From a virus (taxonomy: Duplodnaviria; Heunggongvirae; Uroviricota; Caudoviricetes), in the IMG/VR virus record IMGVR_UViG_2700989364_000009: a stretch of DNA of 5,097 nt. The stretch is one strand, 5' to 3'. A model generated the notes under the pieces. That model ran no database searches. It was given only the letters and a program-made list of their open reading frames with translations, and had not been told where the DNA came from. Positions 597 to 3,338 of the stretch are shown piece by piece. Made by a program: the position numbers and the translations under genes. How positions within the stretch are numbered: the first letter of the stretch is position 1; each line of letters opens with the position of its first letter.

Positions 597-3338
597 GTGC
601 TCAGTGATTTCTGCTCGGCGATGCGCTGTATGCCGGTATGGAACGGGCAGACGCTGACGTTCGTGCAGGACCGACAGTCGGATAAGGTGTGGGCCTATAA
701 CCGCAGTAATGTGGTGATGCCGGATGATGGCGCGCCGTTCCGCTACAGTTTCAGCGCCCTGAAAGACCGCCATAATGCCGTTGAGGTGAACTGGATTGAC
801 CCGGATAACGGCTGGGAGACGGCGACAGAGCTTGTGGAGGATACGCAGGCCATTGTCCGTTACGGTCGTAACGTCACGAAGATGGATGCCTTTGGCTGTA
901 CCAGCCGGGGGCAGGCACACCGCGCCGGGCTGTGGCTGATTAAAACGGAACTGCTGGAGACGCAGACCGTGGATTTCAGCGTGGGTGCTGAAGGGCTTCG
1001 TCATGTACCGGGCGATGTCATTGAAATCTGCGATGATGACTATGCCGGTATCCGCACCGGCGGGCGCGTGCTGGCGGTGAACAGCCAGACCCGGACGCTG
1101 ACGCTCGACCGTGAAATCACGCTGCCATCCTCCGGCACCACGCTGATAAGCCTGGTTGACGGGCAGGGGAATCCGGTCAGCGTGGAGGTCCAGTCCGTCA
1201 CCGACGGCGTGAAGGTAAAAGTGAGCCGTGTTCCTGACGGTGTTGCTGAATACAGCGTGTGGGGGCTGAAGCTGCCGACGTTGCGCCAGCGCCTGTTCCG
1301 CTGTGTGAGTATCCGTGAGAACGATGACGGCACGTATGCCATCACTGCCGTGCAGCATGTACCGGAAAAAGAAGCCATCGTGGATAACGGGGCGCACTTT
1401 GACGGCGACCAGAGCGGCACGGTGAATGGTGTCACGCCGCCAGCAGTGCAGCACCTGATATTCCCCGCTGTCTGCAGTGACTTCTGCGATCAGGTAGACC
1501 GCCATAATGCCGTTGAGGTGAACTGGATTGACCCGGATAACGGCTGGGAGACGGCGACAGAGCTTGTGGAGGATACGCAGGCCATTGCCCGTTACGGTCG
1601 TAACGTCACGAAGATGGATGCCTTTGGCTGTACCAGCCGGGGGCAGGCACACCGCGCCGGGCTGTGGCTGATTAAAACGGAACTGCTGGAGACGCAGACC
1701 GTGGATTTCAGCGTGGGTGCTGAAGGGCTTCGTCATGTACCGGGCGATGTCATTGAAATCTGCGATGATGACTATGCCGGTATCCGCACCGGCGGGGGCG
1801 GGCTGGCGGGGGACAGCCAGACCCGGACGCTGACGCTCGACCGTGAAATCACGCTGCCATCCTCCGGCACCACGCTGATAAGCCTGGTTGACGGGCAGGG
1901 GAATCCGGTCAGCGTGGAGGTCCAGTCCGTCACCGACGGCGTGAAGGTAAAAGTGAGCCGTGTTCCTGACGGTGTTGCTGAATACAGCGTGTGGGGGCTG
2001 AAGCTGCCGACGCTGCACCAGCGATTGTTCCGCTGCGTGAGTATCCGTGAGAACGACGACGGCACGTATGCCATCACCGCCGTGCAGCATGTGCCGGAAA
2101 AAGAAGCCATCGTGGATAACGGGGCGCACTTTGACGGCGACCAGAGCGGCACGGTGAATGGTGTCACGCCGCCAGCGGTGCAGCACCTGACTGCCGAAGT
2201 CACCGCAGACAGCGGGGAATATCAGGTGCTGGCGCGCTGGGACACGCCGAAGGTGGTGAAGGGGGTGAGCTTTATGCTTCGCCTGACCGTGGCAGCGGAT
2301 GACGGCAGTGAGCGGCTGGTCAGCACGGCCCGGACGACGGAAACCACATACCGCTTCACGCAACTGGCGCTGGGACGGTACACGCTGACAGTCCGGGCGG
2401 TAAATGCCTGGGGACAGCAGGGCGATCCGGCGTCGGTATCGTTCAGGATTGCCGCACCGGTAGCACCGTCGCGGATTGAGCTGACGCCGGGCTATTTTCA
2501 GATAACTGCCACGCCGCATCTTGCGGTTTATGATCCGACGGTACAGTTTGAGTTCTGGTTCTCGGAAACGCGGATTACCGATATCAGGCAGGTTGAAACC
2601 ACAGCCCGCTACCTTGGCGCGGGGCTGTACTGGATAGCCGCCAGTATCAATATCAAACCGGGCCATGATTATTACTTTTATATCCGCAGTGTGAACACCG
2701 TTGGCAAATCGGCATTCGTGGAGGCCGTCGGTCGGGCGAGCGATGATGCGGAAGGTTACCTGGATTTTTTCAAAGGCAAGATAACCGAATCCCATCTCGG
2801 TAAAGAGCTGCTGGAAAAAGTTGATCTGACGGAGGATAACGCCAGCAGACTGGATGAGTTTTCGAAAGAGTGGAAGGACGCTAACGATAAATGGAATGCG
2901 ATGTGGGGCGTCAAAATTGAGCAGACCAAAGACGGCAAACATTATGTCGCGGGTATTGGCCTCAGCATGGAGGACACGGAGGAAGGCAAGCTGAGCCAGT
3001 TTCTGGTTGCCGCCAATCGTATCGCGTTTATTGACCCGGCAAACGGGAATGAAACGCCGATGTTTGTGGCGCAGGGCAACCAGATATTCATGAACGACGT
3101 GTTCCTGAAGCGCCTGACGGCTCCCACCATTACCAGTGGTGGCAGTCCTCCGGTATTTTCCCTGACATCAGACGGAAAGCTGACCGCTAAAAATGCGGAT
3201 ATCAGTGGAGCTGGGAGACGGCGACAGAGCTTGTGGAGGATACGCAGGCCATTGTCCGTTACGGTCGTAACGTCACGAAGATGGATGCCTTTGGCTGTAC
3301 CAGCCGGGGGCAGGCACACCGCGCCGGGCTGTGGCTGA
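597..3338 (+). CDS. J: J-like tail tip / host-specificity protein, internal segment containing an in-frame internal duplication (blocks A-B-C, inverted linker, B-C, D); no authentic N-terminus in window; ends at a frameshifting junction
   Basis: Frame 3 is open from 513 (TGA at 510-512), first GTG at 597, TGA at 3336-3338. Translation carries motifs I recognise from lambda J ([35 protein letters not shown]; [21 protein letters not shown]; [11 protein letters not shown]). Block C occurs twice in this frame (891-1458, 1623-2190), spaced 732 bp = 244 codons. After 3209 the frame reads non-J peptide ([17 protein letters not shown]...). Confidence 0.6.
765..1458 (+). repeat. Direct repeat unit B+C, copy 1 (694 bp)
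   Basis: Begins gaccgccataatgcc, ends cagcacctga; same unit at 1497-2190 (offset 732) and partially at 3210-3857. Confidence 0.85.
1459..1496. other. Junction linker: inverted copy of the 31-bp quasi-palindrome spacer plus truncated right arm, joining block C back to block B
   Basis: 1459-1489 (tattccccgctgtctgcagtgacttctgcga) matches the reverse complement of 2191-2221 (tattccccgctgtctgcggtgacttcggcag) with 4 mismatches; tcagg (1490-1494) matches the right arm. Confidence 0.75.
1497..2190 (+). repeat. Direct repeat unit B+C, copy 2 (694 bp)
   Basis: Offset +732 from 765-1458, in frame. Differs by one substitution in B (gcc vs gtc, A/V), the G-cluster at 1797-1812 and C-terminal variants in C. 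Confidence 0.85.
2181..2231. repeat. Quasi-palindrome: 10-bp perfect inverted repeat (cagcacctga / tcaggtgctg) around a 31-bp spacer; second copy at 3848-3898
   Basis: Left arm 2181-2190, right arm 2222-2231 (exact reverse complement). Left arm alone recurs at 559-568 and 1449-1458, each the last 10 bp of a C block. Confidence 0.8.
2191..2775 (+). repeat. Block D allele 1 (immediately downstream of block C)
   Basis: Homologous to 3858-4442 at roughly 95% identity by eye ([28 protein letters not shown]...DFFKG); scattered substitutions, no indels seen. Confidence 0.8.

Follow-up and report, generated by a model that had tools for sequence, protein, structure and literature searches.

The question raised by this locus is whether a tight cluster of four substitutions, all to G, in one copy of a repeated phage gene reflects a mutational event in the virus or an error of sequencing and assembly. 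The window analysed here is the whole stretch of 5,097 nucleotides, which an exact protein look-up identified as the entire 5,097-bp contig CXFR01000279.1 of assembly GCA_001261595.1. The matching protein, CST65831.1 from Shigella sonnei, is 913 aa long and is annotated as a 'host specificity protein'. The look-up record of the contig states samples_with_this_contig: 2, and if this number denotes two independent isolates, a random error becomes less likely.

The cluster occupies positions 1797..1812 on the + strand and is private to one gene copy, S3 (copy C3 of the preliminary description), where c is replaced by g at 1797, t by g at 1801, t by g at 1810 and a by g at 1812. The 28-mer of S3 that spans it (1791..1818, +) reads GGCGGGGGCGGGCTGGCGGGGGACAGCC, while the corresponding 28-mers of S2 (C2; 1059..1086, +) and S4 (C4; 3458..3485, +) both read GGCGGGCGCGTGCTGGCGGTGAACAGCC. 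The deposited sequence agrees with the preliminary description in all three of these readings, and the four base changes and the replacement of RVLAVN by GGLAGD, at residues 494–499 of lambda gpJ, are exactly as reported there. In a fourth copy, S1, the uncorrupted 28-mer (169..196, +) shows a single synonymous difference, GTA for GTG. The changes in S3 fall on codon positions 1, 2, 2 and 1 and are all nonsynonymous, giving, by the numbering of lambda gpJ, R494G, V495G, V498G and N499D. Alignment of the copies required no gaps, so that the cluster consists of four substitutions in 16 nt and zero indels.

Across the 767 nt from 1497 to 2263, S3 and S4 differ at only five positions, four of which constitute the cluster. 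The fifth difference, T>C at 1588, represents common natural variation, with C present in 71 of 89 loci of a panel of natural J alleles built from metagenome loci matched by a 31-mer (87 matches). The suggestion that the four changes are unlikely as independent mutations was borne out by simulation, which gave a probability of 9e-5 for at least four of five differences falling inside 16 nt; the shared direction to G contributes a further factor of roughly (1/3)^4. Taken together, the clustering and the one-way bias place the cluster far beyond chance.

The whole window maps to one lambdoid tail-tip gene, J. The S2 fragment matches residues 394–624 of lambda gpJ with E = 7.5e-149, and the gpJ structures PDB 8iyk and 9e7m are matched at E ~1e-148. 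Pfam matches with E-values from 1.5e-65 to 9.2e-32 comprise Phage-tail_3, Ig_J, Ig_J_second and Phage_Tail_Tip, the Pfam identifiers of the gpJ tip protein being PF13550, PF24421, PF24489 and PF09327; PF13550 occurs twice within one ORF of the window. Segments S1–S4 are ordinary lambdoid J alleles, 94–98% identical to J genes of E. coli prophages. When intact alleles were sought in complete E. coli genomes, the best matches of the segments reached only about 98%, and hence no segment can be assigned to a specific prophage. The organization of the window differs strongly from that of a normal J locus. Lambda gpJ is encoded by a single intact ORF of ~1,130–1,165 aa in the tail gene cluster, and normal J loci hold one 3.5-kb gene, whereas the window contains four overlapping partial copies in three frames, together with one flipped piece, and the frame is broken twice. 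The preliminary description spoke of a 1.2-kb repeat, but no simple repeat unit exists: one gene is restarted four times, and an inverted 37-nt piece is inserted among the restarts.

The first segment, S1 (1..568, +), corresponds to J nt 1306–1873 of allele a in frame 1. At joint 1 (569) stands a lone orphan A; exact natural matches end at 568 and resume at 570, the frame is broken and a stop codon follows just past the joint at 571–573. Segment S2 (570..1458, +) corresponds to J nt 985–1873 in frame 3 and resembles S3 and S4 up to 1241 and S1 from 1281. It is followed by the flipped piece (1449..1495, -), the reverse complement of J nt 1868–1914, which is the natural continuation of the S2-like allele. 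The two are joined by a 10-nt overlap at 1449–1458 (cagcacctga) that forms one arm of a natural hairpin of J. A 31-mer near joint 2 is the reverse complement of ordinary J owing to a natural inverted repeat, and an edge mismatch is present at 1489, near the joint. At joint 2b (1496) the flipped piece abuts S3 without homology. Segment S3 (1497..3208, +), the bearer of the G cluster, corresponds to J nt 1180–2975 in frame 3. Joint 3 (3209) is again a lone orphan A, between S3 and S4, and the frame shift that it causes brings the ORF at 597–3338 to its stop at 3338. Segment S4 (3210..5097, +) corresponds to J nt 1226–3113 in frame 2 and reaches the contig end. Both orphan bases are presumably filled single-N gaps, in accordance with the behaviour of SSPACE.

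None of the joints appears to have a natural counterpart. The diagnostic junction strings were found in 0 of the 89 natural J panel loci, the 29-mer across joint 1 in none of the GTDB genomes, and the linker region was spanned in 0 of 4,536 matching complete E. coli genomes. Homology at the joints amounts to 0–10 nt, compared with a Velvet k of 66–90% of the read length, and two of the joints disrupt the reading frame. The first polymorphism lies 45 and 91 nt from the segment starts, distances that do not agree with a single Velvet k. The contig is therefore misassembled, its non-homologous joints being seen in no other sequence searched. The 'unique linker' at 1459–1496, proposed earlier as an anchor for a copy-specific PCR, turned out to be a reverse-complemented stretch of J itself. 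Since its joint is most likely absent from the genome, a linker-anchored PCR would probably fail.

The G-rich variant was seen in none of the other sequences examined. Viral, GTDB-genome and metagenome contigs yielded 0 exact matches to the G-rich 28-mer. The variant was likewise absent among 8,921 J places of complete E. coli genomes, a collection that holds no Shigella genomes; the best match there was 127/131, which means that the uncorrupted form is present exactly and the variant never. At the protein level, GGLAGD was found in 0 of 120 clusters of homologous proteins, among them clusters of S. sonnei that comprise 1,534 members. Natural alleles carry C, T, T and A at the four sites in 81 of 81 cases, with GRVLAVNS invariant, and the 28-mer of S2 is the commonest natural form (25/81 panel alleles). 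Differences among natural alleles are mostly at third codon positions, unlike the changes of the cluster, which affect positions 1 or 2. The motif was also tabulated by alignment-based extraction from 94 aligned homologues, where R is present in 90, V or I in 93 and V, I, L or M in 90. As judged from this alignment, three of the four changes fall on strongly conserved residues; three of the four occur in no natural homologue except two aberrant or misaligned sequences.

Two sources of programmed or templated variation were considered and rejected. A template switch or gene conversion lacks a donor, as no stretch matching the G-rich sequence at ≤3 mismatches occurs elsewhere in the window and none was found in the E. 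coli, viral, GTDB or metagenome collections. A diversity-generating retroelement does not agree with the changed bases, which are C, T, T and A and not A-specific; no template repeat (≤3 mismatches) and no reverse transcriptase are present, the contig consisting of J sequence only.

The arrangement of the cluster is similar to the sequence-specific errors of Illumina sequencing described by Nakamura et al. in 2011 (PMC3141275). These are clustered substitutions with no indels, located within 10 nt downstream of a GGC and favouring T>G; in 49–61% of cases, against 25% by chance, the erroneous call repeats the reference base before it, the mismatches are confined to reads of one direction and accompanied by a drop in base quality, and lagging-strand dephasing triggered by GGC or by inverted repeats was proposed as the cause (PMC3141275). 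In S3 the new base equals the preceding G at all four sites on the + strand. GGC motifs begin at 1791, 1795 and 1805 (+) in the uncorrupted form, and the putative errors lie 2–7 nt past the first base of the closest GGC upstream. The flanks of the motifs (cGGCg and tGGCg) agree with the published weak preference for C or T before the motif and G after it. The probability that four random non-G sites meet both the preceding-base and the GGC conditions is ~2.6e-5. Within the 28-mer, the non-G sites that follow a G were changed in 2/2 cases for T, 1/1 for A and 1/6 for C, and those that do not follow a G in 0/5. Reading of the - strand also fits reasonably (preceding-base match at 3/4 sites, two A>C changes), so that reads of either direction may be the source. 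The cluster thus shares with the published errors the substitution-only form, the GGC trigger, the copying of the preceding base and Illumina sequencing by synthesis. The published errors differ in being a read-level phenomenon, whereas the S3 cluster sits in a deposited consensus; an additional assembly step at low depth or in one read direction would therefore be needed.

The history of the assembly suggests where such a step may have occurred. CXFR01000001-385, ERR042794 and ERP000568 appear in the supplement of Page et al. 2016 (PMC5320598), whose list comprises 9,404 assemblies and is limited to HiSeq 2000/2500 or MiSeq data with >50x coverage. In the main texts of the literature, no mention of GCA_001261595, CXFR01 or ERP000568 was found. 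The Sanger pipeline consisted of VelvetOptimiser, SSPACE with 16 iterations and then GapFiller with 120 iterations; the latter two programs are called greedy by its authors, who warn that such algorithms 'can lead to false joins' (PMC5320598). The window was produced by the same pipeline, shows no homology at its joints and two orphan bases, and contains a multi-copy prophage gene only. By default, GapFiller closes a gap on an overlap of at least 10 nt; it takes bases at a depth of at least 2 with a 0.7 majority (Boetzer and Pirovano 2012, PMC3446322). The overlap between S2 and the flipped piece is exactly 10 nt, equal to this threshold.

From the deposited consensus rather than from reads, we infer that the four Gs are very probably sequence-specific miscalls of four-colour Illumina chemistry that persisted in the consensus of a wrongly assembled repeat contig. 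This artefact reading is the best supported because the variant is unique among the sequences examined, falls on conserved residues and lies inside a visibly misassembled contig. The sequence of events could have been as follows. Near-identical J alleles of several prophages would have collapsed in the de Bruijn graph, after which greedy scaffolding and gap closing would have chained and re-extended the alleles from leftover reads that were not properly paired. The stretch 1497–2263 of S3 is the same as other copies; a k-mer graph would collapse such sequence, while a read-by-read extender could re-create it, and the consensus in such a re-extension may depend on a small number of reads that all run the same way. 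For reads of the + strand, ccGGCGGGCGCGTGCTGGCGGTGAA would offer GGC three times as a trigger of lagging-strand dephasing. The delayed G signal could then override the true base, T most easily through the optical cross-talk of G and T, so that GcG, GtG, GtG and GaA would be read as GGG, GGG, GGG and GGA.

Several observations go against miscalls. The dataset exceeds 50x overall, and a miscall would win only where the effective depth is low or one-directional. No joint is closer to the cluster than 300 nt, which exceeds one read length, and 1497–2263 may have been produced by Velvet rather than by GapFiller.

A genuine, recent, localised cluster of mutations in one real J copy of the isolate, for instance the trace of error-prone repair or of template switching in a prophage pseudogene undergoing decay, seems unlikely. 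The cluster is indeed present in the deposited sequence, and the polymorphism at 1588 sets S3 apart from S2 and S4, so that S3 may partly derive from a distinct genomic copy. Moreover, Shigella prophage J genes may be under relaxed selection and would then tolerate R494G, V495G and V498G. However, a template switch has no donor in the window or in any of the collections, the contig around the cluster is demonstrably mis-joined, and each change copies the preceding base after GGC, which is a signature of sequencing and not of mutation. Nor do we know of any form of mutagenesis that would produce C>G, T>G, T>G and A>G side by side. The 'localised mutational event' offered earlier as one of two explanations finds nothing in its support.

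It is quite improbable that a low-depth extension was templated by one aberrant molecule of the library, such as a chimera from PCR or end repair with polymerase errors or damaged bases. The flipped loop is located at a strong natural hairpin, and library preparation yields foldback chimeras of this kind; GapFiller takes bases at a depth of 2, and the edge mismatch at 1489 suggests a poor-quality template by the joints. Against such a molecule, polymerase errors or damage would not uniformly repeat the base before them or gather downstream of GGC, the usual damage artefacts run in the opposite direction (G>T, C>T), and the cluster is too remote from the nearest joint.

Even less credit can be given to true localised hypermutation producing the four residue changes in a tandemly reiterated, rearranged J pseudogene. 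If true, it would imply an unknown G-directed process that copies the neighbouring base, for example slippage-like misincorporation by an error-prone polymerase on G-rich DNA.

The preliminary description was right to suspect a base-calling error, which is the best-supported explanation, but its proposed mechanism, the no-signal poly-G artefact of two-colour Illumina instruments (NextSeq, NovaSeq), is virtually excluded: the likeness is confined to the bias to G (4/4 changes) in a G-rich region, while the platform and the form both differ, as the assembly set is limited to HiSeq 2000/2500 and MiSeq, and dark cycles give an unbroken G run, whereas c1799, c1803, t1804, c1807 and a1813 are intact. 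HiSeq 2000/2500 and MiSeq are four-colour instruments. Run ERR042794, lane 6350_1, also appears to be older than the launch of two-colour instruments in 2014.

The G cluster is hence best regarded as a data-quality flaw that implies no biological function. GenBank record CXFR01000279.1 and its protein CST65831.1 are chimeric and contain probable base-call errors. The same pipeline is behind ~18,000 public assemblies, and in such drafts a prophage gene with several copies can therefore appear falsely duplicated, contain flipped fragments or show in its consensus Illumina errors specific to one strand. Searches for 'hypermutation', 'tandem duplication' or novel tail-fibre variants should filter out short contigs that consist of one repeated prophage gene. 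The value of the case is that of a data-quality note, and for the biology of the phage it has no significance.

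An exact-protein look-up identified the window as the entire 5,097-bp contig CXFR01000279.1 of assembly GCA_001261595.1, with its 913-aa ORF deposited as GenBank CST65831.1, 'host specificity protein [Shigella sonnei]'. Segments were mapped onto a normal prophage J (tail-tip) gene of 3,498 nt (locus L001). Segment S1 (window 1-568) corresponds to J nt 1306-1873, S2 (570-1458) to J nt 985-1873, S3 (1497-3208) to J nt 1180-2975 and S4 (3210-5097) to J nt 1226-3113, and a flipped piece at 1449-1495 runs on the opposite strand from J nt 1914 back to 1868. When placed on complete E. 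coli genomes, the pieces all fall on one ~2.1-kb stretch of a single gpJ gene. The window is thus a chain of J-gene restarts, not a gene. The reading frames of S1-S4 are 1, 3, 3 and 2, with a stop after joint 1 (569) and a frameshift after joint 3 (3209), and the single long ORF contains the Phage-tail_3 domain twice (Pfam). Because the whole contig consists of four partial J copies and a flipped piece, CST65831.1 (ORF 597-3338) is chimeric: its Phage-tail_3 domain is duplicated and its tail frameshifted.

Some other features of the contig were observed. The variants in S2 are of the S3/S4 type as far as 1241 and of the S1 type from 1281 onward; this switch reflects a naturally mosaic allele or else a change of path between alleles in the assembly. 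The distal parts of S3 (2816-3208) and S4 (4567-4951) share ~76-79% identity, the former being lambda-like and the latter of another type, an illustration of how the prophages of one genome exchange modules within the C-terminal half of J. Long antisense ORFs face the J strand (300-2942, minus strand, 880 aa; 2942-4462, minus strand, 506 aa); they show no sign of being genes, and the probable explanation is shadow ORFs opposite a gene with high GC content and codon bias. The contig record counts two samples, yet the protein cluster has one member from one contig.

The joints were mapped by extension of exact matches to 89 natural J loci. To the left of joint 1 exact matching ends at 568 and to its right it resumes at 570; joint 3 shows the same around 3209. 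The orphan A's left at 569 and 3209 are presumably filled one-N scaffold gaps, as expected from the behaviour of SSPACE. At joint 2 the strand switches within a 10-nt overlap, cagcacctga (1449-1458), and the flipped piece adjoins S3 at 1496 with no homology. Positions 1459-1495, taken for a unique linker in the preliminary description, proved to be reverse-complemented J sequence and are not unique: apart from a mismatch at 1489 (A in the window vs G in natural alleles), they match what naturally follows in an S2-like allele. In natural J genes this stretch is the loop (~31 nt) of a strong hairpin (DNA fold −20.8 kcal/mol, z = −4.07) at J nt ~1855-1924, whose exact 10-nt arms, cagcacctga/tcaggtgctg, lengthen to ~20 bp with imperfect pairing; the window has the loop inverted relative to natural J. 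Four diagnostic junction strings have no occurrence in the 89 natural loci, a 29-mer over joint 1 is absent from GTDB genomes, and among complete E. coli genomes none bridges the linker region. An independent metagenome contig (RWZF01000087.1, 3134-7474) harbors a similar chain with other breakpoints (J 2497-1380, then 2169-13, then 1069-1, minus strand). Thus, concatenation of J, a multi-copy gene, is not confined to one short-read assembly; the second contig suggests the same class of assembly artefact, real duplications being less likely.

The assembly belongs to the 9,404 listed by accession in the supplement of Page et al. 2016 (PMC5320598), where its row reads ERP000568, ERS025895, ERR042794, CXFR01000001-CXFR01000385, lane 6350_1#20, Shigella sonnei. 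The set was sequenced on HiSeq 2000/2500 or MiSeq at >50x and assembled using VelvetOptimiser with k = 66%-90% of read length; the improvement steps were fed only reads not mapped as proper pairs, GapFiller went through 120 iterations while its depth threshold was lowered, and S. sonnei assemblies have a mean of 405 contigs (Page et al. 2016, PMC5320598). GapFiller trims 10 nt at gap edges, extends by single bases at a depth of at least 2 and a 0.7 majority, and closes a gap once the extensions from both sides share 10 nt or more (Boetzer and Pirovano 2012, PMC3446322). The overlap at 1449-1458 is exactly this closure minimum of 10 nt. Since a de Bruijn graph with k at or above about 50 cannot give joints with 0-10 nt of homology, we infer that the joints came from post-Velvet steps or chimeric reads.

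The 28-mer reads GGCGGGCGCGTGCTGGCGGTGAACAGCC in S2 (1059-1086) and S4 (3458-3485), differs from this normal form by a single synonymous change in S1 (169-196), and reads GGCGGGGGCGGGCTGGCGGGGGACAGCC in the G-rich copy of S3 (1791-1818). On re-reading the sequence, the four differences to G in S3 were found exactly as first described: c>g at 1797, t>g at 1801, t>g at 1810 and a>g at 1812. They fall on codon positions 1, 2, 2 and 1 (R>G, V>G, V>G, N>D), with no indels in the cluster. S3 differs from the S4 copy (from 3210) at five positions in 767 nt (1497-2263) and is otherwise identical; the fifth difference, T>C at 1588, is a polymorphism often seen in natural alleles. The presence of 4/5 differences inside 16 nt has P ~9e-5 in simulation, and the all-to-G direction contributes an extra factor of ~0.01, in agreement with the initial view that such changes are unlikely as independent mutations. 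The G cluster in the deposited sequence is real, and chance is ruled out.

The exact G-rich 28-mer gave 0 matches in IMG/VR viral contigs, GTDB species-representative genomes and JGI/ENA metagenome contigs. A 131-nt query around the cluster hit 8,921 places in 4,431 complete E. coli genomes, the closest of which match it at 127/131; the uncorrupted sequence thus has exact natural copies in these genomes, and the variant has none. The four sites are C, T, T and A in all 81 natural alleles from gut metagenomes, whose eight nucleotide haplotypes of the 28-mer all encode GRVLAVNS. A protein search of 5.8 billion clusters listed 120 relatives; among those listed, GGLAGD is absent and none spans the junction-2 peptide. 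S. sonnei fragments, including a cluster with 1,534 members, have RVLAVN. Numbered as in lambda gpJ, the substitutions are R494G, V495G, V498G and N499D, and residues 494-499 lie in the conserved Phage-tail_3 core, distant from the C-terminal receptor-binding end. Among 94 homologues (48-96% identity), the first three changed positions hold R (90/94), V/I (93/94) and V/I/L/M (90/94), with N/D (41/50) as the sole naturally variable position of the four. The cluster bears no imprint of selection, because the conserved core is changed at codon positions 1 and 2, whereas natural differences between the window alleles are mostly at third positions.

The four G's are very probably four-colour Illumina sequence-specific miscalls, fixed in the consensus of a misassembled repeat contig. 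Sequence-specific errors (SSE) are runs of substitution miscalls in reads of one direction only, triggered by inverted repeats or by GGC, usually in the 10 upstream bases, with C/T before and G/T after GGC weakly favoured; the miscall equals the immediately preceding reference base in 49-61% (chance 25%), and T>G and A>C are favoured via optical cross-talk (Nakamura et al. 2011, PMC3141275). The G cluster resembles such errors in being composed of substitutions only, behind GGC, with the preceding base copied. GGC starts at 1791, 1795 and 1805 of the uncorrupted form (contexts cGGCg, tGGCg), and 4/4 changed bases stand directly after G and at most 10 nt from GGC (P ~2.6e-5 that four non-G sites drawn at random from the shared stretch satisfy both). 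Within the 28-mer, non-G sites after G were changed at T in 2/2, A in 1/1 and C in 1/6 cases, and those not after G in 0/5. Minus-strand reads fit slightly more poorly (preceding-base matches 3/4, one GGC trigger). The pattern bears the signature of lagging-strand dephasing, which GGC would have set off in the reads. Sequence such as 1497-2263, identical to other copies, would have collapsed in the k-mer graph, and a greedy, low-depth, mate-anchored extender may have rebuilt it from a few one-orientation reads; alternatively, an error 'bubble' in the graph could have been taken as the path for one repeat copy. Under the SSE reading, a read-level error would still have had to enter the consensus at a dataset depth of >50x. 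Moreover, the joint closest to the cluster is 300 nt away.

A single aberrant library molecule is a possible source of the flipped hairpin loop, but leaves the preceding-base rule unexplained. A genuine local mutation cluster in one J copy is very improbable: a donor sequence was not found in the window or the searched collections, the host contig is demonstrably mis-joined, and we know of no mutational spectrum matching the four changes. The proposal of a base-calling artefact is partly supported: an artefact is very probable, in view of the GGC and preceding-base signature and the lack of matches in the searched collections, but one of GGC-triggered dephasing. Its two-colour poly-G (no-signal) version is rejected: HiSeq 2000/2500 and MiSeq, the platforms of this set, are four-colour instruments, and c1799, c1803, t1804, c1807 and a1813 are intact between the changes, unlike in a no-signal G run. 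A DGR is excluded, since the changes are not A-specific and neither a template repeat nor a reverse transcriptase is present in the contig.

In all likelihood, the G cluster is not a real biological feature. It is of use only as a warning that this public contig and its protein record are chimeric, and that prophage genes present in several copies call for care in drafts made by pipelines.
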